A DNA stretch of 64,000 bases. Source: Octopus vulgaris. Its lineage: Eukaryota. Positions 7,432 to 56,439 of the stretch are shown here, one piece after another. A program made the position numbers and the translations under genes. Each line of letters opens with the position of its first letter. The first letter of the stretch is position 1. Location of the stretch: the NCBI GenBank assembly GCA_951406725.2, contig OX597817.1, positions 173,166,001-173,230,000 on the forward strand. Reading direction: 5' to 3'. The notes beneath the pieces are model-generated. The model saw only the letters and a program-made list of their open reading frames with translations. It was not told the DNA's origin and searched no databases.

Positions 7432-7506
7432 CATGACCGTCCAACCCATGCTAGCATGGAAAGCGGACGTTAAATGATGATGATATATATAAATATATAT
7501 ATATAT

Positions 7507-7809
7507 AAATAATAGTTATCGCCATACTAATATGGCATTCTTATAAAAATAAGAATAAAGCTGTCCGCTTATTAGCTCCATGAGGCCATCGCCTTAAGTT
7601 AGCTATTTGATACACAAACTGTATCCATATAACCTTCGAACAAGTCAAGTAGTGTGGAGCGACTGACCTCCCTTGTTCGAAGGTTATATGGATACAGTTT
7701 GTGTATCAAATAGCTAACTTAAGGCGATGGCCTCATGGAGCTAATAAGCGGACAGCTTTTTTCTTATTTTTATAAGAATGCCATATTAGTATGGCGATAA
7801 CTATTATTT
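7507..7809. repeat. Near-perfect hairpin (~138-bp arms, ~27-nt loop) between (TA)n tracts
   Basis: 7507-7644 is the reverse complement of 7672-7809. Confidence 0.9.
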
Positions 7810-7960: not shown

Positions 7961-7963
<3 letters not shown>

Positions 7964-9053
7964 AGTTTCCGCTACCTGGGTGACCAACTTAGTAGTGGAG
8001 GTGGATGCTCAGAGAGTATCACCACTAGAATACGAATAGCCTGGGCAAAGTTCAGAAAGCTCCTACCCCTACTGGCGACAAAGGGTCTCTCACTCAGAGT
8101 GAAAGGTAGATTGTATGATGCATGTGTGTGAACTGCCATGCTTCACGGTAGTGAAACATGGACTGTGACTGCAGAGGACATGCGTAGACTTGAAAGAAAT
8201 GAAGCTAGCATGATCCGCTGGATGTGTAATGTCATTGTGCACGCACGACAGAGTGTAAGCACCCTGAGAGAAATGCTGGACATAAGAAGCAACAGATGTG
8301 GTGTGCAAGAGCGACGCTTGCGATGGTATGGTCATGTACTGCAGATGGATGAGGAGAGATGTGTGAAGAAGTGCCACTCCCAAACAGTTGAAGGTATCAA
8401 GGGGAGAGGTAGACCCAGGAAGACATGGGATGAGGTAGTCAAGCATGACCTCAGAGCATTGGGCCTCACTGAGGCAATGGCGAAGGACCGAGATCTCTGG
8501 AGGTATGCTGTAACTGCAAAAACCCGGGCTGCTCTCGGCACCAGTTCCGCATAGCCCCTGCCCATTCAAAGTACCCTGGATTCCAGAACGTCCCGCTGTG
8601 CTTGAGGAGAACTGTTGAGTCAAGTACATGAACATGAACATCGAAATAAATATCAATGGAAATAGTGGTTGTGCTACCTGTGCAGGTGGCACATAAAAAG
8701 CACCATCCGAACGTGGCCGTTGACAGCGCCGCCCCGACTGGCTTCTGTGCCGGTGGCACATAAAAAGCGTCATCCGAACGTGGGCATTGCCAGCGCCGCC
8801 TTGGCTGGCTTCCGTGCCGATGGCAGGTTAAAAGCTCCAACCGATCGTGACCGATGCAGGTGGCACGTAAAAAGCACCCACTACACTCTTGGAGTGGTTG
8901 GCATTAGGAAGGACATCCAGCTGTAGAAACTCTGCCAGATCAGACTGGAGCCTGGTGCAGCCCCTGGCTTCACAGACCCTGGTCGAACCGTCCAACCTGT
9001 GCTAGCGTGGAAACGGACGTTAAACGATGATGATGATGATGATGATGATGATG
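7961..9053 (+). mobile_element. 5'-truncated RTE-clade LINE (RT C-terminus, 3' UTR, (GAT)n tail)
   Basis: FRYLGD..SSGGG..RIRIAWAKF..MLHGSETW..RRLRWYGHV..RGRPRKTW; contains an in-frame stop. Confidence 0.9.
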
Positions 9054-9056
9054 GTG

Positions 9057-9084
<28 letters not shown>

Positions 9085-9087
<3 letters not shown>

Positions 9088-9474
9088 GAGAGGGATGACC
9101 ACTATGTGGACAACCCTTATGCTAGAAGTAGATCCGCTATGGTCTTACCAATAAGAAATGTTCCCAAGAAAATTTTAGCAAACACCAGAATGTAATCAAG
9201 CAAGACAAAAGAAAAGCAATAAAAATATGGATTTTTATTTCTTTTCTTTCTTGGTTGTTTGCTAAATTTTCTTGAGAACATTTTTTAGTGGTAAGACCAT
9301 AGCAGATCTACTTCTAGCATAAGGGTTGTCCACATAGTGGTCATCTCACTCATATATAAATATATAATACAATTTTATTGAACCTTCTGATTTTTATATG
9401 CTAGACTACTGGTGTGAAATTAATGTTAATTAAATTAATATCACATTTCTCACCCACATTTTAAATTTATACAT

Positions 9475-9519
<45 letters not shown>

Positions 9520-12500
9520 GTGTAACGTCCGTTCTCCATGCTAGCATGGGTTGGACGGTTCGACCGGGGATCTGGGAAGACAGAAGGCTGCACCAGGCTC
9601 CAGTCTTATCTGGCAATGTTTCTACAGCTGAATGCCCTTCCTAACGCCAACCACTCCGTGAGTGTAATGAGTTCTTTTTACGTGCCACACGCACAGTACG
9701 TGCCACCCGCAAAGAGATCTAAGAGGAAGCCGAAAGCGGCACCCTCTTTGATCTCTTTCGGCACACTCTTTGATCTCTTTCGGCACCCTATTTGATCTCA
9801 TTCGGAACTCCCCTTTGATCTCTTTTTGGCACCATCTTTGATCTTTTTCGGCACACACTTTGATCTCTTTCGGCACCCTCTTTGATCTCTTTCGGGACTC
9901 CTCTTTGATCTCTTTCGGCACACTCTTTGATCTCTTTCGGCACACTCTTTGATCTCTTTCGGCACCCTCTTTGATCTCTTTCGGCACCCTCTTTGATCTC
10001 TTTCGGCACCCTCTTTGATCTCCTTCGGGATCGTCTTTGATCTCTTTCGACACCCTCTTTGATCTCTTTCGGCACTCCTCTTTGATCTCTTTCGGTACCC
10101 TCTTTGATCTCTTTCGGCACCCTCTTTGATCTCTTTCGGCACCCTCTTTGATCTCTTTCGGCACACTCTTTGATCTCTTTCGGCACCCTCTTTGATCTGT
10201 TTCGGCACTCTCTTTGATCTCTTTCGGCACCCTTTTTGATTTCTTTCGGCACCCTCTTTGATCTCTTTCGATACTCCTCTTTGATCTCTTTCGGCACCCT
10301 CTTTGATCTCTTTCGGCACCCTCTTTGATCTCTTTCGGCACACCCTTTGATCTCTTTCGGTACCCTCTTTGATCTCTTTTGGCACCCTCTTTGATCTCTT
10401 TCGGCACCCTCTTTGATCCCTTTCGGCACTCTCTTTGATCTCTTTCGGCACTCTCTTTGATCTCTTTCGGCACCCTCTTTGATCTCTTTCGGCACCCTCT
10501 TTGATCTCTTTCGTCACACTCTTTGATCCCTTTCGGCACTCTCTTTGATCTCTTTCGATACTCCTCTTTGATCTCTTTCGGCACACTCTTTTTTCTCTTT
10601 CGGCACCCTCTTTGATCCCTTTCGGCACTCTCTTTCATCTCTTTCGATACTCCTCTTTGATCTCTTTCGGCACCCTCTTTGATCTCTTTCGGCACCCTCT
10701 TTGATCTCTTTCGGCACCCTCTTTGATCTCTTTCGGCACCCTCTTTGATCTCTTTCGGTACCCTCTTTGATCCCTTTCGACACCTTCTTTGATCCCTTTC
10801 GGTACCCTCTTTGATCTCTTTCGATACTCCTCTTTGATCTCTTTCGGTACCCATTTGATCTCTTTCGGCACCCTCTTTGATCTCTTTCGGCACACCCTTT
10901 GATCTCTTTCGGCACTCTCTTTGATCACTTTCGGCACTCTCTTTGATCTCTTTCGGCACCCTCTTTGATCTCTTTCGGTACCCTCTTTGATCTCTTTCGG
11001 CACCTTCTTTGATCTCTTTCGGCACCCTCTTTGATCTCTTTGGGTACCCTCTTTGATCTCTTTCGGCACACTCTTTGATCCCGTTCGGCACTCTCTTTGA
11101 TCTCTTTCGATACTCCTCTTTGATCTCTTTCGGCACTCCCTTTGATCTCTTTCGGCACCCTCTTTGATCTCTTTCGGCACCCTCTTTGATCTCTTTCGGC
11201 ACCCTCTTTGATCTCTTTCGGCACCCTCTTTGATCTCTTTCGGCAGCCTCTTTTATCCCGTTCGGCACTCTCTTTGATCTCTTTCGGCACCCTCTTTGAT
11301 CTCTTTCGGTACCCTCTTTGATCTCTTACGGCACCCTCTTTGATCTCTTTCGATACTCCTCTTTGATCTCTTTCGGCACCCTCTTTGATCTCTTTGGGTA
11401 CCCTCTTTGATCTCTTTCGGCACTCTCTTTGATCACTTTCGGCACTCTCTTTGATCTCTTTCAGTACCCTCTTTGATCTCTTTCGGCACACTCTTTGATC
11501 TCTTTCGGCACTCTCTTTGATCTGTTTCGGCACCCTCTTTGATCCCTTTCGGCACTCTCTTTGATCTCTTTCGGCACTCTCTTTGATCTCTTTCGGCACC
11601 CTCTTTGATCTCTTTCGGCACTCTCTTTGATCTCTTTCGGCACCCTCTTTGATCTCTTTCGATACTCCTCTTTGATCTCTTTTGGCACTCTCTTTGATCT
11701 CTGTCGGCACCCTCTTTGATCTCTTTCGGCACCCTCTTTGATCTCTTTCGGCACTCTCTTTGATCTCTTTCGGCACTCTCGTTGATCTCTTTCAGCACCC
11801 TCTTTGATCCCTTTCGGCACCCTCTTTGATCTCTTTCGGCACTCTCTTTGATCTCTTTCGGGACCCTCTTTGATCTCTTTCGGCACCCTCTTTGATCCCT
11901 TTCGGCACCCTCTTTGATCTCTTTTGGCACCCTCTTTGATCTCTTTCGGCACTCTATTTGATCTCTTTCGGCACCCTCTTTGATATCTTTCGGCACCCTC
12001 TTTGATCTCTTTCGGCACCCTCTTTGATCTCTTTCGGCACTCTCTTTGATCTCTTTCGGCACTCTCTTTGATCTCTTTCGGCACCCTCTTTGATCCCTTT
12101 CGGCACTCTCTTTGATCTCTTTCGGCACTCTCTTTGATCTCTTTCGGCACCCTCTTTGATCTCTTTCGGCACCCTCTTTGATCTCTTTCGGCACCCTCTT
12201 TGATCTCTTTCGGCACCCTCTTTGATCTCTTTCGGCACTCTCTTTGATCTCTTTCGGCACCCTCTTTGATCTCTTTCGGCACTCTCTTTGATCTCTTTCG
12301 GCACCCTCGTTGATCTCTTTCGGTACCCTCTTTGATCTCTTTCGGCACCCTCTTTGATCTCTTTCTGGGTGGCACGTACTGTGTTGGTGACACGTACTGT
12401 GTGGGTGGCACGTAAAAAGCACCCACTACACTCACGGAGTGGTTGGCGTTAGGAAGGGCATCCAGCTGTAGAAACATTGCCAGATAAGACTGGAGCCTGG

Positions 12501-12572
12501 TGCAGCCTTCTGTCTTCCCAGATCCCGGTCGAACCGTCCAACCCATGCTAGCATGGAGAACGGACGTTACAC

Positions 12573-12623
<51 letters not shown>

Positions 12624-13016
12624 ATGTATAAATTTAAAATGTGGGTGAGAAATGTGATATTAATTTAATTAACATTAATTTCACACCAGTAGTCTAGCAT
12701 ATAAAAATCAGAAGGTTCAATAAAATTGTATTATATATTTATATATGAGTGAGATGACCACTATGTGGACAACCCTTATGCTAGAAGTAGATCTGCTATG
12801 GTCTTACCACTAAAAAAATGTTCTCAAGAAAAATTTAGCAAACAACCAAGAAAGAAAAGAAATAAAAATCCATATTTTTATTGCTTTTCTTTTGTCTTGC
12901 TTGATTACATTCTGGTGTTTGCTAAAATTTTCTTGGGAACATTTCTTATTGGTAAGACCATAGCGGATCTACTTCTAGCATAAGGGTTGTCCACATAGTG
13001 GTCATCCCTCTCATAT
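9085..13016. repeat. Large inverted repeat: arm 9085-9736 mirrors about 12330-13016 and encloses a 22-bp tandem array
   Basis: Outer ~520 bp of the arms are essentially exact reverse complements; both outer ends abut (TA)n. Confidence 0.9.
9737..12365. repeat. Minisatellite of about 120 x 22 bp (ACCCTCTTTGATCTCTTTCGGC) with recurring 23-bp variants
   Basis: Directly visible; the 22-aa periodicity of the minus-strand ORFs equals 3 x 22 bp. Confidence 0.95.
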
Positions 13017-13403
13017 GTATATATATATATATATATTTATATAAATATATATATATATAAATTCCTCGTGTAAATTGCCCGCATAAAGCTCCTTGTGCGA
13101 TATGGTTAAAAATATCACCGCAGTGAATATAATGACAAAATAAAAATATAGATTTATATAAATAAGGATAAAATCATTATTTAAATAATGAACTTATCAA
13201 GTGGCCAGCATGGGAATAAAAACCTTCAAAGGTAATAATTATTATTAGAATTATAATTTAGGGTATCAAAGAGATGCTAGTTATTTTGTCTCTTTGCCGT
13301 CTCTCCTGGTGCTGTATGAACATTTAATGTGGTTTTACAGTCAAGTATTGGCTGCTATTTCCAGCGTGGTGGTATCTCTTAGATACCCTTAATTATAATT
13401 TTA

Positions 13404-13436
<33 letters not shown>

Positions 13437-15300: not shown

Positions 15301-15707
15301 TCACATATATATATAGTGTAATAAATAAAATATATGCATACATACAAACATATATGTACGTACCGACATCTACATGTATATATACATGCATATATAAATA
15401 TATATACGCACAGGAAAACGAAAAAATCAACAGAACGAAAACGGAAAAGACATTTTGTTACAACAGAAGGACAGAGACGTGGAAATAATGATATTAATGG
15501 AAAAATTCAATTTAGTATTAAATCAAATTTCACAATATAAATAAGAGATAAAACCACTATTATGCAATTGAAACGAAGATAGACATAAATAACAAATAAA
15601 ATATCTAGTTATATGTTTTATAAAAATATATTTTATTAGTTATTTATGTTTTGGTTTATGTCTGTCATTGTTTGAATTGCATAATAGTGGTTTTATCTCT
15701 AATTTAT

Positions 15708-16325
15708 CATCATCATCATCATCATCATTTAGCGTCCGTTTTCCATGCTAGCATGGGTTGGACGGTTCAACTGGGGTCTGGGGAGCCCGAAGGCTGCACC
15801 AGGCCAGTCAGATCTGGCAGTGTTTCTACAGCTGGATGCCCTTCCTAACGCCAACCACTCCGAGAGTGTAGTGGGTGATTTTATGTGCCACCGACACAGG
15901 TGCCAGACGAGGCTGGCGAACGGCCACGCTCGGATGGTGTTTTTATGTGCCACCGACACAGGTGCCAGACGAGGCTGGCAGACGGCCACGCTCGGATGGT
16001 GTTTTTATGTGCCACCGACACAGGTGCCAGATGAGGCTGGCGGACGGCCACGATCGGATGGTGTTTGTTACGTCCCCAAAGCACGGAGGCCAGTCTATGC
16101 GGTACTGGCTACAGCCACGTTCGGATGATTTTCTTGTGTGCCACCGGCACTGGTACCACAAAGATACAAATTCCATTGATGTTCATCTATTTTGATTTGT
16201 TTTGATTTGATTTGATTTGATTTTCACTTGCCTCAACAGGTCTTCACAAGTGTCACAAGAAGGAAGGTATGCACAGGTGGACTGACTACGTCCCAGGTAG
16301 GGGCCACGGGTTATGGCCTGACTAG
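15708..16325 (-). mobile_element. RTE-type 3' UTR copy; near-identical sibling at 16645-17150
   Basis: Same family as 1-347; the two copies differ in internal repeat number and in tail ((CAT)n versus (CTT)n on the plus strand). Confidence 0.75.
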
Positions 16326-16389: not shown

Positions 16390-17560
16390 CAGTCTTCTTT
16401 CAGAATTGGCCTGTCTCTATTCACCAGTCTTGGTTGTTTAATTGCAAGTCCACAGATCATTTCATCCAATTGGTTGATGTTTACATCTGCTGTAATTGAC
16501 TTAGCAGGTCTCTTGAAGCTGTAGTTCGATGGCACCAATAATGGACCACCCTACAGACAGCATTAGCTTTTATAGGTGAATATTCTTCTTTGGATTGTGT
16601 TTTGGAACTTTGTCTCTATTCCACCATTGTGCAGAACATTTGCTACTTCTTCTTCTTCTTCTTCTTTCTTTTAACGTCCGCTTTCCATGCTAGCATGGGT
16701 TGGACGGTTCAACTGGGGTCTGGGGAGCCCGAAGGCTGCACCAGGCCAGTCAGATCTGGCAGTGTTTCTACAGCTGGATGCCCTTCCTAACGCCAACCAC
16801 TCCGAGAGTGTAGTGGGTGATTTTATGTGCCACCGACACAGGTGCCAGACGAGGCTGGCGAACGGCCACGCTCGGATGGTGTTTTTATGTGCCACCGACA
16901 CAGGTGCCAGACGAGGCTGACGAACGGCCATGATCGGATGGTGTTTCTTACGTGCCCACAGCACGGAGGCCAGTCGATGCGGTACTGGCTACGGCCACGT
17001 TCGGATGGTTTCCTTGTGTGCCACCGGCACTGGTACCACAAAGATACAAATTCCATTGATGTTCATCTATTTTGGTTTGATTTGATTTGATTTGATTTTC
17101 ACTTGCCTCAACAGGTCTTCACAAGTGTCACAAGAAGGAAGGAAGGTATGCGTTGAAAAGAATTCGTTTTTCAGCACACGTAACAATACGATGCAAAAAT
17201 GGTTCACTTTGAAGCCGTGACAGCAAAGAACAGCAAGTTTCAAGACGTGTCATTTGATGCTTGTTCAGTTCGTGTGGTACCCACTTGTCTAGCTTCTTTG
17301 CCAGTTTGTTTCAGATGGTCCAATAAAGTTGGAATCAAAACATCAAACCTTGCTGCTAGTTCATGTGTAGTCTGAGATGTATCCGTTCCAACTACAGCTT
17401 CCAGCTCATTATTATCCACCTTGGTCTCAGGTCTATCATGGTGCTGATTTTCAAGAGTAAGGTCACCAGACTGGAACTTCCGAAACCATCGATGTACAGA
17501 GTGCAAATTTCCCACATCTTCACCAAACACCTCATTGAAGTTTTGAGCCTGTCTGGGATG
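16390..17560 (-). pseudogene. Degraded mariner transposase interrupted by an RTE-tail insertion (16645-17150); probable 5' end/TIR near 18120-18263
   Basis: RWFRKFQSGD, KLDKWVPHELN, FLHRIVTCAEKRILF, KLMLSVGWS, QLDEM..LAIKQPRLVNR; frameshifts and stops present. Confidence 0.85.
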
Positions 17561-17843
17561 CACTGGTTCCACAATGGAACCAATGTCCAATTTTCTGATG
17601 CACCAACTTTGACAGTCATTTGACTATCTATCCATGGGTTCACAAAAACTGATTTACAAGAGAAAACTCACAATTAGGAGTGGCTATGTGGCAGGTAGCT
17701 TGCTTACCAACCACATGGTTCCATGTTCAGTCCCACTGCATGGCACCTTGGGCAAGTGTCTTCTACTATAACCTCGGGCTGACCAAAGTCTTGTGAGTGG
17801 ATTTGGTAGACGGAAACTGAAAGAAGCCTGTCGTATATATGTG

Positions 17844-18324: not shown

Positions 18325-18640
18325 GAAAGAGAGAGAAAGAGAGAAAGGGGGAGAGAGAGAGAGAAAGAGAGAAAGGGGGTGAGCGAGAAAGAGAGAAAGG
18401 GAGAGAGTGAGAGAGGTGAGTTAAATTAGAGGTTATAAAGTCCGTCTAAGGTATACTTATCTCAAATGAATTAACTGGTGTATTACCTCTATGTGATTAT
18501 GAGTATTAGTATTAATGCTCATAAGTGATAGGTAAGGAAAAGAGTAAACTGAAGTTTATCCACATTTAAGGAAAATAAGAAAATGGAGATAAAACTGATA
18601 ATTGATAAACAATTATTTATTATTGATTATAAAAAAAAAA

Positions 18641-18707
18641 GCATTATCTTAACTGACAGCTGTTTCTGTTCGTACTATTTAGGGCATAATCAGGCTTCAT
18701 TATTACA

Positions 18708-18739
<32 letters not shown>

Positions 18740-19098
18740 CATAATAATAATAATTGTAAATAATTAATTATACCGACTTAAATAGCGAAATGGTGGAACT
18801 TCATCAACAGTGGAAAAGTAAAGAAAAAGAAAAGAAAAGAAAGAGAAAAAGAAAAAGTAATTATATACCAATTGATGTTACATGCTGTTTTCAGAGGGAT
18901 AGCATGTAACATCAATTGGTATATTCTTACTTTCTCTTTTTCTCTTTCTTTTTCTTTATTTTTCCGCTCTGATGAAGTTCCACTGTTTAAGTTGGTATAA
19001 TTAATTATTTACAATGATAATTATTATTATTGTTGTAATAATTAAGTCTGATTATGCCCTAAATAGCACCAACAGAAACAGCTGTCAGATGAGATAAT
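18641..19098. repeat. Imperfect hairpin element with a hammerhead-like motif (18967-19088, plus strand)
   Basis: Arms are reverse complements about ~18893; CTGATGA ...~100 nt... GAAA CAGCTG TC. Confidence 0.65.
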
Positions 19099-19424
19099 AT
19101 CCTCTTATATGTATGTAATATCATTTTTCTGAATCTTCAGATTTTTCTAAATGCCAGACCACTGGTTTTAAATTGATATTAATTAAATTAATATTCAATA
19201 TTTCACCCTTATTATTTTAAGTTTAAATTTTAAATAACCATGTTCTCTAACTGGCAAAATTCACTGCAAAGAATTATTTTCTGCAGAATTATTTCCGGTA
19301 TTTGGCGTGCCAAAACGAAGACTTTTGAAATATAACCCCAAATGTAATTGGTAGAACTATATACATATTCAATCTCATGTGGACGTCTTGTGTATAGTTC
19401 TGCAAATTATATTTTGCTAAGACG

Positions 19425-19496
19425 ATCACACTGATGAGTTGCGGACATCTACGTAAGTGATTACATAAGTGGTAATAATGAAACTGGATTTGTGAT
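19425..19496 (+). ncRNA. Type I hammerhead ribozyme motif (PLE-type, partly degenerate)
   Basis: ATCACA-CTGATGA-stem II-GAAACTGGATT-TGTGAT; 6-bp stem I. Confidence 0.6.
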
Positions 19497-19896
19497 TAAT
19501 CTGTATATTTTGTATCTTTTCATTTGTCTTGCTCGCTTACGTTCTGGCGTTTGCTAAATTTTCTTGAAAACATTTCTTTCTTAGTGGTAAGACCATAGGG
19601 GGTCGACTTCTAGCATAATGGATGTCAACTTATTGGCCATCCCTCTTATATGTACATATATATATATATATATTTATATAATAATAGATATTAAGGAATA
19701 AATCCAAACTTACAGGGAAAAATCAGATTTAGGATTGAATCCAATTTTATAGTAAAATATTATATTATATTAAATTAGAGACAAAACCACTATTAGGCAA
19801 ATCATACAATGAAAAACTTAAGCCAATACATAAGATTATTTAATCTATATTATTTAAATATATAACAAAATTATTAAAAAAATATAATTAATATAT

Positions 19897-19960
19897 CACT
19901 ACGATCGTTTCATGGCTGTTAATTTCTTTAAATTTTCGAGTTACAGTCATTCATCAGGTG
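19897..19960 (-). ncRNA. Type I hammerhead ribozyme motif (mirror of 20026-20089)
   Basis: CAC-CTGATGA-ATGACTGT..ACAGCCAT-GAAA-CGATCG-TA-GTG. Confidence 0.7.
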
Positions 19961-20025
19961 GTTTAAAAATTTATCTTGGCGAGGTTTAAACATTGTTTAA
20001 ACCTCGCCAAGATAAATTTTTAAAC

Positions 20026-20089
20026 CACCTGATGAATGACTGTAACTCGAAAATTTAAAGAAATTAACAGCCATGAAACGATCGTAGTG
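20026..20089 (+). ncRNA. Type I hammerhead ribozyme motif
   Basis: Intact core CTGATGA/GAAA, palindromic stem III ACGATCGT, GUA cleavage triplet. Confidence 0.7.
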
Positions 20090-20225
20090 ATATATTAATT
20101 ATATTTTTTTAATAATTTTGTTATATATTTAAATAATATAGATTAAATAATCTTATGTATTGGCTTAAGTTTTTCATTGTATGATTTGCCTAATAGTGGT
20201 TTTATCTCTAATTTAATATAATATA

Positions 20226-20302
<77 letters not shown>

Positions 20303-21400: not shown

Positions 21401-22576
21401 CATACATACATACGTACATACATACATACATACGTACATACATACATACATACATACATACATACATACATACATACATACATACATACATACATACATA
21501 CATACATACATACTTACATACAAAAAATACCCTGTTGTTGATGTTGAAATTCCAATGAAGGAGCCTTGGATCTGGGTTAGAAACCGGTTCTTTCTCTATT
21601 GGCAAAAAATCTTGAAATAAACTGAATAAAGACACACATATAAATACTAATGAATTTTCTTCTGGTTATAATTCTTACCTCAAATGTTTCGAATGGTTAA
21701 AATCTATTCGCAACTCATCAGCTCAAATATGACAGCTTTCTCTTAACTACGTGTTCGTCACACTAAACACCCTCTTGGGAAATATTTAAATGGCATTTAT
21801 TTTAATTTATCAATGAAGTGAACAGTTATCTATAAAAATACCATATCTGTTAGTCCTCCGTTGGAAAGGCTTGCTTTGACAGGACTGGGCTTCCCTCAGA
21901 GGGTTTTAATTAGACCCAATGGTTTGGAGTTCAGTCCCACCTTGGACAAGCATTTCTACTATAGCCCTTGGCTAAACTAAGCCTTGCATGGAGGCAGGTG
22001 GCTTAGTGGTTAGGGGTGTTGGACTCATGATTGTAGGATTGTGGTTTTGACTTCTGGACCAGCAGACTCATTGTGTTCTTGAGAAGAACACTTTATTTCA
22101 TGTTGCTCCAGTCCACTCAGCTGGCAAAAATGAGTAATCCTGCGAGGGACTGGTGTCCCGTCCAGGTGGGGAATATACATATGCCTTGAAACTGGGAAAC
22201 CGGTCCTTATGAGTCGGTATGATTCGAGAAGGTAACTTTAACTTAAACCAAAGCCTTGCATGTAGATTTGGTAGACAGAAACTGAAAGAAGCCTGTTGTA
22301 TATGATTATATACAGCACTGGATTAACCATTGAGCAAAATAAGCAGAAGCTAAGAGCATCAAGAGAAGTGGGGCACCACAGAGATGGTATATGGTTTGCA
22401 ACACAAAAGGAAAAAGAAAAAAATCACCTTAAACTCGCTAAAATAATACTCCAAGTGATTTATACAATAGAAAATATAATCTCAAAGTGTTCATGGTGTT
22501 GTAGTTAGGATCTGATTAAAGACTTTGCAATCAAAAACAAGGAGAAAACTTTTCAAATATAAATAAAGTGGAAATA

Positions 22577-25295: not shown

Positions 25296-25859
25296 TACAA
25301 ACACATATATGCATATACATAAATATATACATATACACATATATAAATACATACAAATTGTGTGTGTGTGTGTAATTATGTATATAATATACATGTATGC
25401 ATGTATATGTATATATATGTGTATATATGAATGTGTATGTATCTATATGAGTGTATGTGTGTGTATATGTGTGAATATATGTCTGTGTGTGTGTGTCACA
25501 TTTATTCTCATTATCATAAATATTCAAACATCTGGGGGTTTTTTCAATGGATCATACATGCTTCATTTCTCACTAATCTCTTCCAATCTTCGGCATTCAA
25601 TATTAATATCTCATGGCATATGCTTCATAGAGTTCCCCACATTTTTAAACATTTACTTTTCTTTTGGCACAGAGAGAAGCAACAACGTCTGTTATTGACA
25701 ACAGAGCAGAGAATTCCCAAAACTGCTGCGATCGCCTTACCCCTCAGTACTCCAGCCACCTTACATTCAACTACCAGGCTGTAGATCATTTGGTACCAAG
25801 TCATGCAAAAGGAATAAATCTTTAAATTTTTTTTTCTATCTTATTGGTTAGTGCAATCT

Positions 25860-26385
25860 GCAGGGTGTTGTGCAACCAAAAGAATACCCTCCATCAGGCA
25901 TTTGCCATATTCTGAATGCCTTACTTCCCTGGGCATGGACACATTGAAACTCCGATGTCTGGCAGCTGACTTGGCAGACACCCATAAAATTATTAACCAT
26001 CTTACAAACAATAACTCTGAGCACCTTTTCAAACTCCACCCGTCTAACACCCGTGGACATATTTACAAAGTCAGAAAACAACACAATTCCCATGACTTTC
26101 GGAAACATTTTTTCATGCTGAGAGTTGCTGAAGCATGGAACAAACTGCCAGCATCAGTTGTTAGTTGTCGGAGCACTGCATCCTTCAAAACTTCCATGCT
26201 TCCTGAGATTCGCCAACACTACACTTGATTTTCTCCCCTCCATACACACACAGGCATGTATCTGACTCATACACTGTTCGCTTTCCAGTCATTTGTACAT
26301 TACTGCATATGCTTTATACGCACTTTCTGACAAGTTGTGGTGCACCTGAGCACTGTATACAATAATTTCATTATTTATTATTATA
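25860..26385 (+). mobile_element. 3' end of a CR1/L2-group LINE with an (ATT)n tail
   Basis: ATKRIPSIRHLPYSECL..TRGHIYK..RKHFFMLRVAEAWNKLP..SFK, typical CR1-group C-terminus. Confidence 0.8.
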
Positions 26386-26946: not shown

Positions 26947-27864
26947 CATGTACATGTATATGAACATAAAAGACTCCGCCGGTTACGACGACGAGGGTCC
27001 CAGCTGATACGATCAACGGAACAGCTTGCTCGTGAAATTAACGTGCAAATGGCTGAGCATTCCACAGACACGTGTACCCTTAACGTAGTTCTCGGGGATA
27101 ATCAACGTGACACAGAGAGTGACAAGGCTGACCCTTTGAAATACAAGTACAACTCATTTTTGCCAGCTGAGTGGACTGGAGCAACGTGAAATAAAGTGTC
27201 TTGCTCAAGGACACAACGCGTCGCCGGGAATCGAATTCACAACCTTACGATCATGAGCCGAATGCCCTAACCACTAAGCCACGCGCCCTCACCATATGAA
27301 CATATACATGTACACACACACACATATATATATACACACACATACACACACACACACATACACACACACACACACACTTATATATATAAATCAGTGTATA
27401 TAGTAAAAAAAATGTTACGTAATATTTGAATAATAAGATAATAAAAGGTAAGGATAAAAATACAGCAAGAACAAATTTTAAAAATAAAAAAAAATATCCG
27501 CAGATTATTCTCAGGATCTTTCTTATGGAGATATAAGTGATAACAGATATCACAATAAACATTTATAAGAAAAGCAGGAATTATTACACACAAAATATTT
27601 GTTGATCCATTTTCACAATCCCTTTTCCGTGTTGGAATATAATTAGGATGATGTTGTTATTGAGAGGTTGCTTTATTTTGGACATCTTTGAAGGAGCAAA
27701 GCCAGCAGACATTTTATTGACTTGAGGAAAGGAAAATATTGCCACCACTTGTAGTCCCTGTTATCCAGAAACTATTTAAACAAACACTCAGACACACACA
27801 TACACCCAACAAGCATGCACACATACTCATACATATATACATACATACATACATATATATACAT

Positions 27865-28285
27865 ACAATAAGGTAAGCTTCATCTTATTTATGTGGTGTA
27901 TCTTATGCCATTTTTTTAGCATAATAACATGCGAAACCCTGACAGCATAGCAGACAAGTCGGGTTTCCAACCATATAGGAAGCAAACTTCTAAACTAGTT
28001 TACTGTGTCCAAGGCAACCAAAAGGCCTATGTGTGTAGGTTATGTTGATGAAATCTCAAGGAAGCCCATCATATATGTATGTGATGAGCTTCCTTGAGAT
28101 TTCATCAACATAATCTACACACAAGTCTTTGGTTGCCTTGGACACAGTAAACTAGTTTAGAAGTTTGCTTCCCATATGGTTGGAAACCCAACTTGTCTGC
28201 TATGCTGTCAGGGTTTCGCATGTTATTATGCTAAAAAAATGGCATAAGATACACCGCATAAATAAGATGAATCTTATCTTATTGT
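27865..28285. repeat. Near-perfect palindrome of about 420 bp with an adjacent tRNA-like head (28290-28375, minus)
   Basis: Arms are reverse complements about ~28075; GGCCCAATGGATAAG...GGTTCAATTC on the minus strand. Confidence 0.85.
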
Positions 28286-28914
28286 ATTGTGTGTTTATTG
28301 ACCCTGATGAGAATTGAACCCACAAGCTTTGGCTCCAAAAGATGACTTCTTATCCATTGGGCCAAATGGCCTCAAACATTTGTCCTAACGCATAATTTCT
28401 AGCATGCATTTGCCTGGCTGCTTATCCAAAATAAAAGACATCAGATCGTTATAATCCTAGATGAGGCTCAGCATCCTGAGATCATTCGCCATCCACTTCT
28501 TTTTATGTTTACCTGAGTCTCTCTCTGCCTCATGTTCCATCCACTTGGAGAGATATGCACTTCCTATGTAGTTGCCATCATCCATTCAACACATCGTATA
28601 CGAATTTCATTGAAGTCTTCCCTGTTGCACACAGCATCTTTTATCTTTTATCTTTTACTTGTTTCAATCACTAGACTGTGGCCATGCTGGGGCAATGCCT
28701 TGAAGTATTTTTAGTTGAATAAATTGGCCCCAGTACTAATTTTTTTTAAAGCATAGTGCTTGTTCTATTACTCTCTTTTAATAAACCACTAAGTTATGTG
28801 GGTGTAAACACACCAACACCGGTTGTCAAGTGGTGGTGGTGGGGAACAAATACACACACATACATGCACACACACACACATACACACACACACGATGATC
28901 TTCCTTCAGTTTCT

Positions 28915-29325
28915 TATTTCTTTATTGTCCACAAGGGGCTAAACATAGAGGGGACAAACAAGGACAGACAAAGGGATTAAGTCGATTATATCGATCCCAG
29001 TGCATAACTGGTACTTAATTTATCGACCTCAAAAGGATGAAAGGCAAAGTCGACCTCAGCGGAATTTGAACTCAAAACGTAACAGCAGACGAAATACCTA
29101 TTTCTTTACTACCCGCAAGGGGCTACACACAGAGGGGACAAACAAGGACAGACAAATAGATTAAGTCAATTATATCGACCCCAGTGCATAACTGGTACTT
29201 ATTTAATCGACCCCGAAAGGATGAAAGGCAAAGTCGACCTCGGCGGAATTTGAACTCAGAACATAACGGCAGACGAAATACCGCTAAGCATTTCACCCGG
29301 CATGCTAATGATTCTGCCAGCTTGC
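28915..29325 (-). mobile_element. Tandem copies of a third SINE family (GCCTTTCATCCTTTCGGGGTCGAT domain, Nin/Deu-like); others at about 4020, 41780, 59285, 62255-62815 and 63270
   Basis: Dispersed repeat with GAGTTCAAATTCC B-box; the domain name is from memory and unverified. Confidence 0.65.
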
Positions 29326-29996: not shown

Positions 29997-32130
29997 CATC
30001 ATCATCATCATCATCGTTTAGCGTCCGTTTTCCATGCTAGCATGGGTTGGACGGTTCTACTGGGGTCTGTGAAGCTAGAAGGCTTCATCAGGCCCAGTCA
30101 AATCTGGCAGTGTTTCTACGGCTGGATGCCCTTCCTAACGCCAACCACTCCGTGAGTGTAGTGGGTGCTTTTTACGTGCCACCCGCACTGGTGCCAGACA
30201 GAGCTGGCAAACGGCCACGAACGGATGGTGCTTTTTATGTGCCACCGGCACGAGGGCCAGGCGAGGCTGGCAACGGACACGAAACGGGGCGGTGCTGGCA
30301 ACGGTCGCGAAACGGAAAGTTCTCTTACATGCCACCGGCACTGGTAACACATCTGCAATTTCCATTGATCGATTTCCATTGATCGATTTCGATTCTGATC
30401 GTCACTTGCCTCAACGGGTCTTCACAAGCAGAGTATTGACATGCCACCGGCACTGGTAGCACATCCGCAATTTCCATTGATCGATTTCGATTCTGATCCT
30501 CACTTGCCTCATCACGTCTTCACAAGTAGAGTTTTGTGTCCCAAGAAGGGAAGGTATGCATACGTAGGCTGGCTCCATCCCATGTAGAAGGCCACGGGTT
30601 ATGGACTCACTTTTCCTACCGGGTCTTCTCGCGCACAGCACACTTCCAGAGGTCTCGGTCTCTAGTCATTTCCTCAGTGAGACCTAAAGTTCGAAGGTCG
30701 TGCTTCACCACCTCGTCCCAGGTTTTCCTGGGTCTGCCTCTTCCACAGGTTCCCTCAACCGCTAGGGTGTGGCACTTTTTCACACAACTATCTTCATCCA
30801 TTCTCGCCACATGACCATACCAGCGCAAACGTCTCTCTTGCACACCACAACTGATGCTTCTTAGGTCCAGCTTTTCTCTCAAGGTACTTACACTCTGCCG
30901 AGTGTGAGTACCGGCATTACACATCCATCGGAGCATACTGGCTTCATTTCTAGCGAGCTTACGCATATCCTCAGCAGTCACGGCCCATGTTTCACTGCCA
31001 TGTAGCATGGCTGTTCGTACACACGCATCATACAGTCTGCCTTTCACTCTGTGCGAGAGGCCTTTTGTCACCAGCAGAGGTAAGAGCTCTCTGAACTTTG
31101 CCCAAGCTATTCTTACTCTAGCAGTTACACTTTCAGCACACCCGCCCCCGCTGCTGACTTGGTCACCTAGGTAATGGAAACTATCAACTATTTCTAGTTT
31201 TTCTCCCTGGAAAGTGACGGAAGTTGGTCTCAGAGCATTTTCAGTGTTTATTGTTCCTGAGCATCTGCCACATACAAAAACCATCTTCCTAGTTAGCCTT
31301 CCTTTGACATTGCTGCATCTCTTATGTGTCCATAGCTTACACTTGGTGCATCTTATAGAGTTTCTACCTACACCTTTTCTACAGATCGAGCAGGGCCATC
31401 TACCTGAAGGTGTTTGTGATTTGTCTACCTTCCTACTGATTACGACTTTGGTTTTAGCTAGATTGACTCTGAGGCCCTTCGATTCTAATCCTTGTTTCCA
31501 CACCTGAAACTTCTCCTCCAGTTCTGATAGCGACTCAGCAATTAGAGCAAGGTCATCAGCATAGAGGAGCTCCCAAAGGCATCCTGTCTTGAATTCCTCC
31601 GTTATTGCCTGGAGGACTATGATAAATAGGAGGGGGCTGAGTACTGAGCCTTGGTGGACTCCTACCTCTACCTGGAATTCTTCACTGTACACATTTCCAA
31701 CCCTCACCCTACTAGCGGCGTCCCTGTACATGGCCCGCACAGCTCTCACTAACCATTCATCTATCCCTAGTTTCCTCATTGCCCACCAGATAAGGGATCG
31801 GGGACCCTGTCGAAGGCTTTCTCCATGTCAACAAAAGCCAGGTACAGGGGCTTATCTTTGGCTAGGTATTTCTCCTGCAGCTGCCTTACCAGGAATATAG
31901 CATCAGTAGTACTTTTCCCTGGCACAAACCCAAACTGCATCTCATCTAAACTAACTCTCTCTCTAATTAGTTGGGCTATGACCCTCTCCGTAACCTTCAT
32001 CACCTGGTCCAACAGCTTGATACCTCTGTAGTTATTTGTATCTAGGGCATCACCTTTACCTTTGTAGCAGTTGACTATTATACTGCTACACCAGTCATTG
32101 GGTATGACCCCTTTGTGTATCACCTGATTA
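29997..32130 (-). mobile_element. 5'-truncated RTE-clade LINE: RT ORF remnant (30616-32130, frameshift near 31795) plus 3' UTR
   Basis: NYRGIKLL, QFGF, FVDMEKAFD, GVHQGSVLSPLLF, LLYADDL, YLG, RRLRWYGH, RGRPRKTW; PHD-like Cys cluster. Confidence 0.95.
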
Positions 32131-32204
32131 ATGTATGTATGTATGTATGTATTGTATATATATATGTGTGTGTGTATATGTTTGTGAATATATACTTGCA
32201 TATG

Positions 32205-32258
<54 letters not shown>

Positions 32259-33602
32259 GTGAAGGTGAATGGCTCAGTGGTTAGAATGTCTGGCTCACAG
32301 TCATGAGGTTGTGAGTGTGATTCCCAGACTGGGTTGTGTGTTGTGCTCTTGAGCAAGACACTTTATTTCACGTTGTTCCAGTTCCCTCAGCTGTAGAAAT
32401 GAGTTGTGATGTCACTGGTGCCAAGCTGTATCAGCCTTGAATAACATCGGTGGTGTGGAGAGAGGAAACTGGTATGCATGGGTGACTGCATAAACAACCT
32501 TACTTGGACTTGTGCAATCCCATGGTCATTCATGACTGAACAGGGTCTTTCAATATATATATATATATACTTTATTTAAAAGCAGCAGAAATTCAACAAA
32601 AGCTGTTACTCGGAGTTTCATGTTCAGGAACTTGAAACTCCAAGTAACAGCTTTTGCTGAATTTTGCTGCTTTTAAATAAAGCATATTACTCTACCTCTG
32701 GTATTTGAGTACTCTTTTTTCCACCTTGTTTCACATTTATGTGTTTACTCCGGTATATATATATATATATATATCTTAATAATTACGATGTGCACTCTTC
32801 TATCTCTACTATCCCTTCTCTGTCTATCTCTCTCCCTCTCTTGTTTTTCATCCCTTCTGGTTTTCTCTCCCACCCTTCCCTATTCTTCTCTTCTCTTCTT
32901 CACCATTCCCTTTCTCTCACTCTCCCTCCTTGACTCTCTCGTCACTGACACGCGACGAAAGGGAATCTGTCTTTCTACCCATTTCCTTCCTAAAGACATG
33001 TGCTTATACCTGTCTTCTTTCATAAGCTCGTCCTCCTAGCGTTCATAAAAATTTTCTATCGTCTTGGCTTAACATCCCTCACCGTTTGTTTTTACTGTCT
33101 TGTTCTCACTGTCCTGTTCTTGTTTCCACTTTCACCCGCTGCAAAAAATCCCAAATTTTATCTAATTTGCTTTGCGTGAAGGTCTGTTTCAATGAAATCA
33201 CGTATTGTCCTTGCCTTCAAAACGTGGAGTAGATGAAACAGGGACAACTGATAAAGAGAAATTTCTTTATGTTGCATGTCTCGTTCCTCTGTTTGTTTTT
33301 TTCGTTGTTCAAAAAAAGTTTGTTTTCATGTTTTCGTTTCTTATTGTGTTCAACGTTTTTTTGATGTCCTGTTCCCATATATGCACATATATATACATAT
33401 ATATGTAGGTATGTACATATATGTATGTATATATGAATATATTTATATATTATTTATATTATTTATATATATATAGAGAGAGAGAGATTCAGATGAATAT
33501 AGTACTTAAGTCGAGGCACCAGAATTTAGTACAGTATTATCCATACAATTTCAAAGTAAGGTGATTAAAGTCAAAATATGCAACAAGGATATCCAGCGGT
33601 AA

Positions 33603-33689
33603 TGCAGTACGATTGTTTCATGCAACTCTATTTAATTGAATAAAGCAATCATTACATCAATTTAAAATGCAGAGCAATCCTCAGCTGCA
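33603..33689 (-). ncRNA. Hammerhead motif with extended stem II
   Basis: TGCAG-CTGAGGA-...-GAAA-CAATCG-TA-CTGCA; 5-bp stem I. Confidence 0.6.
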
Positions 33690-33869
33690 CAAAGACATAG
33701 AATTTAATTAAATTAGAACAGATGGACACATTAGTATAATTCTACCTAAAATCTCCAAGAAGTTAAGGAGTTAAGTATGCCGTCACTAGTGATCACTCCA
33801 AACACTATGATGTTGACCGGATGTTTGATTTTTATCCCTCTTGGTAAATGTTTTGGGGACATGGCAAGT

Positions 33870-34350: not shown

Positions 34351-34708
34351 TTTCCAAATTTCTGGTTGAGTGAATTGTATCATGGTGCTGTTTTTCTTAC
34401 AGACAGTGCCCAACTGACCCTACCATACTGTGTAGTTGACAATATCAAAAATAAACAATGCACATGTGTGAAATTAAAAATATGTAATGGTGACAAGATT
34501 CAGATGAATTAGGTACTTAGGTTGAGGCACCCAAAATTATTGCAGAATTATCCATACAGTTTCAAAATAAGGTGAATAAAATGAAAATGAGCAACAGGAT
34601 ATCCAGAGGTGATGCAGTACGATTGTTTCAAGCAACTCGATTTAATTAAATGGAGTTGCTTGAAACGATCATACTGCATCACTTCTGGATATCCTGTTGC
34701 TTATTTTG

Positions 34709-34749
<41 letters not shown>

Positions 34750-39201: not shown

Positions 39202-39273
39202 GATATTTAGAGATGAGGAATTATATCCATTATTTACATTTGACGGATATTTGTCCTCATCTTGTTTGTTGTT

Positions 39274-39318
39274 AACACAACGTTTCGGCTGGTATAACTC
39301 CAGCCTTCATCAGGTGTC
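39274..39318 (-). ncRNA. Minimal type I hammerhead ribozyme
   Basis: GACAC-CTGATGA-A-GGCTGG AGTTATA CCAGCC-GAAA-CG-TT-GTGTT; perfect 6-bp stem II, palindromic stem III. Confidence 0.75.
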
Positions 39319-39381
39319 TTGGGGAAATTTCGAACCTGGATTCTCATCCCCAAGGTATTTTTTGATGTTGTTGTTTTTATT

Positions 39382-39424
<43 letters not shown>

Positions 39425-39626
39425 TCACTGCCTGGAATCAAACTCGGAATCTTGGGGTTAGTAGCCCGGGCATATGTCATAGTGGTTAAGAGCATGGGCT
39501 ACTAACCCCAAGATTCCAAGTTCAATTCCAGGCAGTGACCTGAATAATAATAATGATAACAACAACAACAACAACAACATTGAAAACTATCTTAGGAATG
39601 AGAACCCAGGTTCGAAATTTCCCCAA

Positions 39627-39672
39627 GACACCTGATGAAGGCTGGAGGGTATATCAGCTGAAACGTTGTGTT
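39627..39672 (+). ncRNA. Minimal type I hammerhead ribozyme
   Basis: GACAC-CTGATGA-A-GGCTG..CAGCT-GAAA-CG-TT-GTGTT. Confidence 0.7.
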
Positions 39673-44006: not shown

Positions 44007-44048
<42 letters not shown>

Positions 44049-44067
44049 TATGAGTGCGTGTGCGTGT

Positions 44068-44925: not shown

Positions 44926-45294
44926 CATGTATCTATATGCAGTTAAGTCTATGTCAGGTCATAGAGTGACCAATGGTTTCACATCCATAAAGGACCTAGC
45001 TCCATGGATAAGCTGTCCTTGGGGCTAAACCTTTTATGGATGTGAAACCGTTGGTCACACTGTGATCAGGCATAGACCGACAAGCTGTCCATGGGGCTAT
45101 GTACTTTTATGGACACAAAACCATAGGTCACTCTATGACCAGACATAGATATAACTTCATATGAATATATATACATTATATAAAAGGGCTTAGTAAAATA
45201 AATTACTTTGCCACATACTGAACTCATTAGAAATAGTAGCTAAAAAAACTTTTCAAATTGTTGAAATTATGAATATATATATATATGAACACAC

Positions 45295-50526: not shown

Positions 50527-50533
<7 letters not shown>
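50072..50533. repeat. Diverged inverted repeat with degenerate hammerhead cores (CTGAAGA) in both arms
   Basis: 50072-50220 resembles the reverse complement of 50381-50533. Confidence 0.6.
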
Positions 50534-50829: not shown

Positions 50830-50864
<35 letters not shown>

Positions 50865-51919: not shown

Positions 51920-51949
51920 TGTGTGTCTGTGTGTGTATATGTATATAAA

Positions 51950-52267
51950 TATCACTCTTTTACGTGCACCTCGTCTGGCCTTATTTACTGCATTAAATGC
52001 AACCTATGCGGGATGCTGTATGTAGGTCAGACGGGACGCCGGTTGTCCGACCGTTTCACTGAACACTTGAGGGACGTTCGCCTACACTCTTTTTCTCCCG
52101 TCGCACGCCACTTCCGCTCGGCCGGCCATTCCCGAGATGACATCTCAGTGTTTGGTCTCGCCCCCCACAATGGTCGCCCACTTTCCAGGCTCCACTTGGA
52201 GCAACGCTACATCTTCACCCTACAAACTACCACCCCACACGGACTTAACACAGCCCCCTCCTCTTGA
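51950..52267 (+). pseudogene. PLE GIY-YIG endonuclease domain (truncated ORF)
   Basis: FTCTSSGLIYCIKCNLCGMLYVGQTGRRLSDRFTEH..VARHF..H..EQRYIFTLQT..PHGLN: LIY-YVG motif with CCHH residues. Confidence 0.9.
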
Positions 52268-56339: not shown

Positions 56340-56439
56340 NNNNNNNNNNNNNNNNNNNNNNNNNNNNNNNNNNNNNNNNNNNNNNNNNNNNNNNNNNNNN
56401 NNNNNNNNNNNNNNNNNNNNNNNNNNNNNNNNNNNNNNN
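56340..56439. other. Assembly gap (100 N)
   Basis: Run of N. Confidence 1.

Follow-up and report, generated by a model that had tools for sequence, protein, structure and literature searches.

The EN+ Penelope-like elements (PLEs; Penelope/Poseidon, Neptune and Naiad) are described as carrying, beside their 5′ end, an inverted and 5′-truncated copy of themselves and as using (TA)n targets, with the one-sided tail extension as an optional feature; Octopus Naiads are given with a (TA)n preference in File S1 of the same source, which still calls the mechanism of the PLE inverted structures undefined (PMC8557442). As reported in (PMC11167929), a purified PLE protein cuts and extends the two strands, with a start site that lacks homology to the target and no requirement for hammerhead cleavage; in the case of PAc the RNA must run beyond the start site. 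PLE ends have also moved unrelated DNA in Adineta vaga (trans-mobilisation by Pen3a_Av, inverted fragment of Pen2a N1), where the inverted copy took in cargo; the cargo there is flanked by a direct pLTR on each side, a TSD is present and the empty allele has been proven (PMC3846280).

In this work we analyse a stretch of 64,000 nucleotides of Octopus vulgaris DNA (the window), which holds a fold-back comparable in part to each of these systems. It is like the EN+ PLEs as presented in (PMC8557442) in its adjacent 5′-truncated inverted copy with 3′ ends outward, its (TA)n target and its character of a non-coding remnant; it differs from them in having no ORF, direct pseudo-LTR tandem around the cargo, one-sided tail or internal hammerhead, and in that ~90% of the insert is non-PLE cargo, present in the inverted copy as well. 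The A. vaga cases (PMC3846280) share with it PLE ends without internal PLE sequence and the inversion of part of the cargo at the 5′ end, but the octopus fold-back has one terminus only, and its cargo is a satellite plus a LINE tail. Non-LTR retrozymes (PMC7229834; 10.64898/2026.07.22.740005) resemble a relative of its terminus at 19101-19656, in being non-coding, in low GC, in a redundancy of its termini and in a candidate core resembling a type I hammerhead; unlike them, this relative is a single unit of ~543 bp with a degenerate hammerhead-like motif. The fold-back itself has just that part of the unit which follows the motif, and where retrozymes consist of tandem units that all contain a type I hammerhead, the tandem 22-mer of the fold-back is without ribozyme. 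Finally, the LINE-1 target-site inverted duplications treated in (10.1101/2024.12.14.628481) are also local inverted copies near a retroelement target, whereas the segment duplicated here ends at the terminus of an element. In shape, then, the fold-back is a large version of the published PLE hallmark, capture of unrelated DNA by PLE ends is already known, and a single locus such as this remains a suggestive instance of a class already described. What is new is the step in the substitutions between its arms, the two ancestral bases kept in the left arm, and a sister of its 22-bp satellite elsewhere.

Results

The initial annotation had described a 3.9-kb fold-back at 9085..13016 with inverted arms of ~650 bp around a 22-bp satellite, and the sequence confirms it: when 9040-9800 is globally aligned to the reverse-complemented 12290-13070, positions 9085-9736 match 13016-12339 in inverted orientation. 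The left flank (7961..9058, + strand) is a 5′-truncated LINE, with a C-terminal RT remnant, a 3′ UTR and (GAT)n, which is a separate paralogous copy outside the fold-back and matches the copies within the arms at 85-91%; it is followed by the (TA)n of the left junction, the putative target site (9059..9084). The left arm (9085..9736, − strand), an inverted copy of 12339-13016, consists of a copy of a nested hairpin with its one-sided extension (9085..9469, −; 0 substitutions against the right arm), of (ATC)15 and a LINE 3′ UTR fragment with 1.7 copies of a junction 18-mer (9475..9710, −), and of 1.2 inverted satellite units with three private substitutions, blunt at the flip (9711..9736, −). 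The array of 22-bp units (9737..12365, +) passes through 2.7 tandem copies of the 18-mer, which stems from the LINE UTR (12366..12414, +), into a LINE 3′ UTR fragment that ends in (GAT)17 and matches the copy at 58753-58955 at 95% (12397..12623, +). Next comes the older nested hairpin, with its inverted arm (12745-12868) and a 115-nt one-sided extension homologous to 19106-19225 (together 12629..12868, −), and with its forward arm (12867..13016, +), which is the terminus of the element family; the (TA)n at 13017..13059 forms the right junction. The arrangement is head-to-head, with the inverted 5′-truncated copy directly adjoining the 5′ end at 9736/9737.

The nested hairpin, the (GAT)n and the LINE 3′ UTR are thus present in both arms as had been claimed; the clade name RTE attached to the UTR we take as an assumption. 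A UTR matching the arm fragment follows a reverse-transcriptase ORF at 30616-31827, RVT_1 being shown for the linked ORF. Within the fold-back there is no ORF with telomerase-like RT and GIY-YIG, the only overlapping open frames being satellite-derived, and no direct pseudo-LTR stands before the array, the upstream copy of the terminus being inverted. Of a synaptotagmin-like gene, only the last exon maps in the window (49098-49532, minus strand), so no overlap of a host gene with the fold-back is shown. The sole sequence gap in the window is at 56340-56439.

The flip lies at 9736/9737, where it had been placed before, and reads GCCGAAAG followed by CGGCAC, with 0 nt of microhomology. Mismatches had been said to increase toward it; they are indeed concentrated near the flip, but in place of a gradient we see a sharp step. 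The outer 546 bp of the arms (9085-9630) carry 0 substitutions and four simple runs of unequal length (the T runs at 9267 and 9281, (GAT)15 versus 17, and a G run at 9566), whereas the inner 106 bp (9631-9736) hold all 11 arm substitutions and lack one tandem 18-mer (Fisher p = 1.3e-9 for the substitution step, with a boundary set after the data were seen). The resulting cluster straddles the flip (9631..9857), with the 11 arm differences on its left and, on its right, six rare variants in the first six array units, which thereby carry 6/39 rare substitutions (p = 0.013); in terms of the + strand, 6/11 on the left and 5/6 on the right are mutations to A. Mutations near the junction are expected under FoSTeS/MMBIR. 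At two CpG sites (9691 and 9709, minus strand) the left arm has C, the right arm T and the nearest LINE copies C, and judging by these copies the left arm keeps two ancestral bases lost by the right. Two further ideas were discarded: the apparent 4-nt loop at the flip as evidence by itself, since any inversion inside a 22-bp array yields a loop of <22 nt, and a switch between haplotypes that differ by an inversion bounded by the two (TA)n tracts, since the flip offers no colinear homology.

The array comprises 119.0 copies of the 22-bp unit (~2.6 kb, 90% matches), 39 of the 119 being identical to the consensus. Its 17 singleton substitutions over 2.6 kb predict ~7 in 2 × 546 bp, where 0 are observed (P ~1e-3), so that the array has a greater age than the outer arms would suggest. 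Outside the array, an 18-nt piece of the unit finds, at ≤3 mismatches, only the inverted unit at 9708. A 250-aa database entry, however, is the translation of a 22-bp unit that differs at 2/22 positions, with 132 of the 250 residues covered as compared to ≤15 for 30 shuffled units; the satellite family therefore exists outside the array, as a sister 22-bp satellite from another locus or another species. This entry was the top one of 57 matches in a protein search with the junction, and the other satellite-region matches among the 57 have 21-51% identity and are K/R/E-rich. Two protein searches with the UTR-18mer-satellite junction returned no entry with both parts as its best stretch; one of them, a word-index search with the junction frame, gave two proteins out of 7999 scored candidates, both matching the LINE-UTR part only. 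A likeness of the satellite to the small inverted repeat at 13243-13406 proved no better than that of background windows.

Both ends of the fold-back do lie in (TA)n, as previously noted, with tracts 1-2 nt from each end (the left one 26 nt long) and flanks that share no homology. They stop at the same base (±1) as each other and as the non-coding unit at 19101..19656 (+ strand, ~543 bp, 13-nt terminal redundancy), which lies outside the fold-back and serves as the reference for its terminus, and neither shows the one-sided tail extension that the nested hairpin has. The resemblance of the right terminus to the 19.5-kb tail, in the same orientation, reaches farther than first claimed (12867-13040 against ~19498-19677, 150/181 columns), and the nested hairpin derives from the family of the 19101-19656 unit. 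The hammerhead reported upstream of that tail did not fare as well: at 19424-19497 we find a degenerate, motif-level candidate only, with no Rfam match and a fold z of −0.33. Rfam gave 0 matches at the gathering threshold over the whole window, and an E-value search of 18600-20300 gave 30, all below gathering and none of them a hammerhead; most of the 30 were miRNA-precursor models on hairpins. Inside the fold-back there is no hammerhead motif, and the forward arm starts (12867) ~8 nt past the predicted cleavage site of the 19.4-kb motif. As to homology of the terminus with the end of an autonomous PLE, one 13-nt motif had 0 matches in one supplement file of PMC8557442, a weak test with a single file. 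The remnant of a GIY-YIG endonuclease (51941..52264, +), C-terminal in its ORF, shows that PLE-type coding elements, whether or not of this terminus family, occur in this genome. A footprint of RNA hyper-editing was considered and rejected, given that ≤3 of the 13 nested-arm differences are editing-compatible, two beside a gap, versus 75 adenosines.

The window further contains 13 smaller hairpins of the PLE kind, about one per 5 kb. The set was picked by eye and leaves out the duplicate nested copy, 33500-33720 (no hairpin), the short self-palindromes at 35130, 43694, 50610 and 56040, and any dispersed repeats or microsatellites paired in inverse orientation. In this selected set, an end lies ≤10 nt from (TA)4+ in 10/13 as compared to 7.7% for random placement, the arm ends are ≤28 nt apart in 10/13 and ≤198 nt apart in 13/13, and the core CTGATGA..GAAAC occurs in 3/13. 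Most of the small hairpins have a one-sided extension, in contrast to both ends of the fold-back, and two other near-perfect hairpins in the window (99.3% and 99.6%) share the (TA)n anatomy of the fold-back. That hairpins in general accumulate mismatches at their centres was rejected (inner 51/593 versus outer 92/1174, p = 0.58), so that the cluster at the flip is not a routine by-product of PLEs.

Discussion

The interpretation that we tentatively prefer, whilst granting it somewhat less than an even chance, is an insertion in trans: PLE enzymes would have taken up a host transcript with an older PLE hairpin at its end, and the array would have been skipped by the inverted copy or lost from it. 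The protein at work, a reverse transcriptase/GIY-YIG enzyme encoded by a Penelope-like element, would have made a single head-to-head insertion from a read-through transcript of a presumed donor locus, running from the satellite array through the LINE 3′ fragment to the older PLE-type hairpin and ending at 13016. Both strands of the (TA)n tract would have been cut and each extended from the same terminus, as judged from the in vitro behaviour of another PLE, leaving two copies with their 3′ ends outward and their 5′ ends bluntly joined. Both copies probably reached nearly the same point, into the array, as in the small hairpins of the window, after which the left one would have lost all but 1.2 satellite units, if it had not skipped them already; the arm ends of the hairpins being close together, such skipping or collapse is favoured over independent truncations 2.6 kb apart. 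The substitution cluster could come from error-prone synthesis or repair at the centre, or from later arm-to-arm conversion of the outer 546 bp. This interpretation is supported by the common terminus, the (TA)n on both sides, the blunt junction, the nearby hairpins, the GIY-YIG remnant and the precedent; the age of the array relative to the outer arms and the sister satellite elsewhere also count in its favour. The original proposal of a PLE-type insertion that carried the satellite and the LINE tail along is in this respect supported by the anatomy, but transduction via RNA is not established. The putative RNA 3′ end is a near-perfect hairpin (−188.4 kcal/mol, z = −24), which speaks against an RNA route because it should mask the binding structure and attract ADAR; reverse transcription would have had to begin within this hairpin, and the footprint of hyper-editing is missing from it. 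Speaking against a PLE more generally are the missing one-sided extension, upstream direct pseudo-LTR, internal hammerhead and ORF, and the ancestral Cs of the left arm are left unexplained if the right arm in its present form was copied once, recently.

Nearly as good, and absent from the initial annotation, is a local inverted duplication by DNA repair, with no RNA involved and with the array, the LINE fragment and the nested hairpin already present; this too we hold less likely than not. Repair of a break at the left (TA)n or the array start could have used the opposite strand of the right end as template, with slippage over the array and rejoining via the self-complementary (TA)n tracts; or else long-tract conversion could have extended the terminal inverted repeats of the old element itself. 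As (TA)n is its own reverse complement and stands directly after the terminus, the coinciding ends come free, and the template is in cis, 3.3 kb off. The absent one-sided extension, the absent editing footprint and the problem of the RNA hairpin are accounted for too, and the 6/39 rare substitutions in the first six units look like what one expects where an array naturally ends, or where error-prone repair has made a joint. In (10.1101/2024.12.14.628481), self-annealing of resected break ends is given as the cause of inverted duplications at LINE-1 breaks, but with 2 bp of microhomology there as opposed to 0 nt at our flip. A single recent copy fails here as well to explain the two ancestral Cs, and the shape is exactly what PLEs make repeatedly in the window.

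Quite improbable, in our estimate, is an older PLE hairpin with 650-bp arms and one or few satellite units, in which the right array later grew to 119 and gene conversion recently evened out the outer arms. It would suit the private changes found on both arms within the inner 106 bp, the divergence of that part (11/106), indistinguishable from the nested hairpin's (9/123, p = 0.48), the similar divergence of the right arm from the nearest LINE copy in its inner (2/66) and outer (8/110) parts, with 6/66 for the left inner part, and the excess of the right arm in copies of every tandem unit (22-mer, 18-mer, GAT). On the other hand, array variants show no significant polarity (Spearman p = 0.20; p = 0.73 without the first six units) and only short shared runs, a single conversion tract would have to span the entire outer arm, and the sister satellite elsewhere shows that the unit did not arise here.

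As to the fold-back read or misjoin that had been held a real alternative, a plain fold-back read is unlikely, since the mirror is off-centre from the flip (the breakpoint joins positions 2.6 kb apart, between unmirrored flanks) and such a read would still require another misjoin, independent of the first, at the (TA)n. An assembly artefact of any kind, from a misjoin combined with a long read that is chimeric or folded back, we place last and regard as very improbable: the outer arms, with 0 substitutions and three homopolymer-length differences, do look like unpolished long-read consensus, the odd bases cluster at the junction, fold-back reads are put at ~0.55-0.6% of ONT genomic reads, some with ~2 kb between segments (PMC12870357), and inverted repeats and some satellites are described as biasing long-read coverage (10.64898/2026.07.13.738322), but fold-back reads mirror around one point, within ~200 bp, according to (PMC12870357), 2.6 kb of array would have to be dropped and a 26-nt (TA)n misjoined to a non-homologous flank, there are no single-base indels among the 11 inner differences, all of them substitutions, which include two ancestral bases, the two other near-perfect hairpins share the (TA)n anatomy, and the only assembly gap is the one at 56340-56439.

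Returning to PLE-mediated insertion, the fold-back may show one way in which PLE-type elements move satellite DNA. Its non-PLE cargo separates what the enzyme would need (a 150-nt terminus, no hammerhead, no tail) from mere freight, and the 119:1 asymmetry of the array together with the central mutation cluster can discriminate two-ended priming from fold-back or repair, given a second allele. Should the RNA route hold, this would be an actual instance of a satellite array seeded by a retroelement, of which we found no published example in open-access literature listings. It is hard to resist a broader speculation, which we nevertheless think rather unlikely, that dead PLE hairpins stay usable as handles; enzymes would copy transcripts ending in them, thus seeding satellite arrays at new (TA)n sites, and the arrays would at first be perfect palindromes of several kilobases, which then undergo one-sided collapse and acquire a strand-biased mutation cluster at the centre. 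If true, such handles would be both a dispersal route for satellites and a steady source of long double-stranded RNA. Octopus is reported in (PMC5625713) to have unusually many loci forming long near-perfect dsRNA, and the strongest hyper-editing signal; PLE hairpins, at the density seen in the window, are a candidate source of these loci.

Results

The fold-back at 9085-13016 reads, in order, (TA)n, left arm, 119 units of a 22-bp satellite, right arm and (TA)n. Base-by-base alignment shows that 12339-13016 is the reverse complement of the left arm at 9085-9736, so that the mirrored arms around the satellite and the (TA)n at both ends, as claimed in the initial annotation, are borne out. The flip at 9736/9737 (GCCGAAAG|CGGCAC) has no microhomology on either side, no homology is found between the 2 kb left and the 2 kb right of the fold-back, and the only assembly gap of the window lies 43 kb away.

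The right arm opens with the last 1.2 satellite units, followed by 2.7 copies of an 18-mer derived from a LINE UTR, by the LINE 3′ UTR itself up to (GAT)17 (95% identical to a copy at 58753-58955), and by an older nested hairpin at 12629-13016, whose own arms are 92.7% identical. The same UTR type occurs 3′ of the RT ORF at 30616-31827, and this LINE is putatively of the RTE clade. The nested hairpin shows homology, in each of its arms, to a non-coding 543-bp unit at 19101-19656. This unit, a putative retrozyme-like monomer, is redundant over 13 nt at its ends, includes a degenerate hammerhead-like motif and lies squeezed between two hairpins that belong to other families. The supposed likeness of the terminus (the element-family end at 13016) to the tail of this unit, near 19.5 kb, stands as homology (the forward nested arm agrees in 150 of 181 columns), but the hammerhead said to lie there is only a weak motif: a pattern-scan match with a fold z of -0.33, in which Rfam detects no hammerhead. 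The inverted nested arm extends 115 nt beyond the terminus, and this extension matches 19106-19225. Both nested arms start some 8 nt 3′ of the point where ribozyme cleavage is predicted (12867-12876 vs 19490-19498), as if a cleaved RNA end had set the truncation point of these arms; such starts were not seen in the two hairpins holding whole hammerhead-like motifs.

Mismatches do rise towards the flip, as had been proposed, in a sharp step. The outer 546 bp of the arms are free of substitutions and differ only in length, at four simple runs, whereas the inner 106 bp carry 11 substitutions and lack one tandem 18-mer in the left arm (p = 1.3e-9 for the substitution contrast, with a boundary picked post hoc). 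At 9631, 9667, 9670 and 9673 the left arm is derived relative to eight other LINE UTR copies; at two CpG positions, however, it keeps the base of the nearest copies whereas that of the right arm has decayed, and the left arm is therefore not a plain recent copy of the present right arm. The substitution cluster spans the flip, since 6 of 39 rare substitutions fall in the first 6 of the 119 array units (p = 0.013). These units also contain 5 of the 13 rare changes to A (p = 3e-4), and on the + strand 6 of the 11 left-arm differences are changes to A as well. No such effect of the centre is seen in the other hairpins (p = 0.58). The array has 17 singleton substitutions; at that rate the outer arms should hold about 7, but they hold none. 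Three accounts are possible: the duplication is recent, younger than the array, and was error-prone at its junction; an older event was followed by homogenisation of the outer arms; or the consensus is locally noisy.

A profile search with the minus-strand frame spanning UTR, 18-mers and array gave 57 matches; the best, a 250-aa entry (E = 2.4e-50, 58%, four stretches), proves to be a translated 22-bp unit differing from the satellite unit at 2 of 22 positions. The translated unit covers 132 of its 250 residues, against at most 15 for shuffled units, and the UTR junction is absent from it. The match indicates that the satellite exists beyond this array. A second protein search returned UTR-frame proteins annotated in O. 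vulgaris and nothing else.

Discussion

Both the shape of the fold-back and its capture of cargo are already known from Penelope-like elements (PLEs). According to PMC8557442, it is standard for PLEs to show an inverted 5′-truncated copy adjoining the 5′ end and to target (TA)n, while a tail on one side is optional; its File S1 includes two Naiads from Octopus for which (TA)n is the preferred target. PMC11167929 shows that both strands are cleaved and extended by a PLE protein, which initiates internally at a site without homology and needs no ribozyme cleavage. PMC3846280 reports trans-movement of host DNA between pseudo-LTRs, for which an empty allele was proven, as well as a piece of cargo that recurs in inverted orientation. 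The fold-back works like such a PLE-made, cargo-bearing inverted insertion, but is not itself a PLE (it has no ORF, direct pseudo-LTR, tail or hammerhead), nor is it a retrozyme as in PMC7229834 and 10.64898/2026.07.22.740005, although its terminus derives from a retrozyme-like unit.

We tentatively favor a PLE insertion in trans, in which a (TA)n would have been cut and its two strands primed on a transcript that stops at the terminus, the two copies would have been joined bluntly, and the left copy would have skipped the array or lost it afterwards. Skipping or collapse seems preferable to independent truncation, because the short arm reaches just 26-27 nt into the array and the 2.6-kb difference in length between the two copies is beyond the range of the small hairpins. 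Against this route count the template 3′ end, a hairpin of -188 kcal/mol, the lack of a hyper-editing footprint in it (at most 3 of 13 differences are compatible) and the absence of a tail from both fold-back ends; no donor was seen. A local DNA-level duplication via the self-complementary (TA)n tracts, which we hold somewhat less probable, would account for the missing tail, footprint and donor as well as for the hairpin template end. Inverted duplications known from LINE-1 breaks offer a parallel (10.1101/2024.12.14.628481), but the junctions described there carry microhomology, unlike the flip. That an older hairpin saw its array grow later, with conversion of the arms, is improbable; it agrees with each arm having private changes, but no growth polarity is seen in the array. 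About equally improbable is an assembly artefact: fold-back reads do occur (PMC12870357; 10.64898/2026.07.13.738322), but two independent anomalies would be needed.

Searches of mainly open-access literature returned no account of a satellite array borne by a PLE end, nor of the octopus hairpins as a class. The fold-back offers a clean and testable example, at a single locus and with a putative RNA route, that bears on the PLE mechanism and on satellite dispersal.

Thirteen smaller hairpins, the nested one included, were hand-selected from the self-comparison of the window. In ten, an end lies 10 nt or less from (TA)4+ (7.7% under random placement), ten have spacers of at most 28 nt (none exceeds 198 nt), and three hold a hammerhead core. 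The twelve besides the nested one (7507-7809, 15537-15707, 18643-19098, 19755-20230, 27863-28287, 32565-32687, 34581-34710, 39220-39726, 44927-45170, 50072-50533, 50848-51035 and 51098-51481) have arms of 58-234 bp with 80-99.6% identity, belong to many unrelated families, occur about once per 5 kb, and mostly show one (TA)n end and a one-sided extension. They are a candidate source of dsRNA, and their density is possibly of interest for octopus RNA editing, a link that we infer with PMC5625713 in mind. Hairpin ends repeatedly adjoin a LINE (GAT)n tail, with a short (TA)n or nothing between (7436-7507, 9026-9085, 12573-12629, 15707-15730); these contacts are apparently two retroelement types piling up at the same sites.

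PLE repeats carry minimal hammerheads, at times as close opposite-strand pairs (PMC4209133). Minimal hammerhead-like cores lie here at 39282-39313 (-), 39632-39664 (+), 19907-19957 (-), 20029-20079 (+), 51235-51287 (-) and 21686-21721 (-); two occur as opposite-strand pairs within hairpins, and Rfam recognises none of those listed. The cleaner motif at 39270-39325 has a fold z of -3.08, the one significant value among four folded motifs.

Among other elements, a GIY-YIG endonuclease remnant at 51941-52264 (+) carries CxxC and His motifs, is itself followed by a T run, and has nine unnamed homologues with 40-64% identity; a domain scan of five of these found GIY-YIG in all five and RT as well in one. 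The exon at 49098-49532 (-) matches synaptotagmin-C of Octopus sinensis at 97% identity and a protein of O. bimaculoides at 94% (two matches from 45 candidates), which assigns the window to an Octopus; it is the last exon of a synaptotagmin-C-like gene and encodes a C2 domain; no further exon of this gene maps within the window. ORF remnants at 30616-32273 (-), 43974-44558 (+), 17240-17623 (-) and 25818-26228 (+) comprise pieces of LINE RT ORFs, one of which has a PHD-like insert, the HTH of a mariner-type transposase, and an unassigned ORF similar to a LINE C-terminus. A small element at 13243-13406 has 33-bp terminal inverted repeats (91%); its kinship to the satellite was rejected, the likeness being at background level. 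Tandem repeats of 62-67 bp lie in LINE 3′ UTR copies at 1-174, 8678-8849, 15874-16066, 16816-17038 and 30164-30283, the hairpin family at 34.6 kb has a partial copy 1 kb upstream (33490-33641 vs 34501-34710; 84-86%), and a 184-bp tandem pair occupies 28915-29282.
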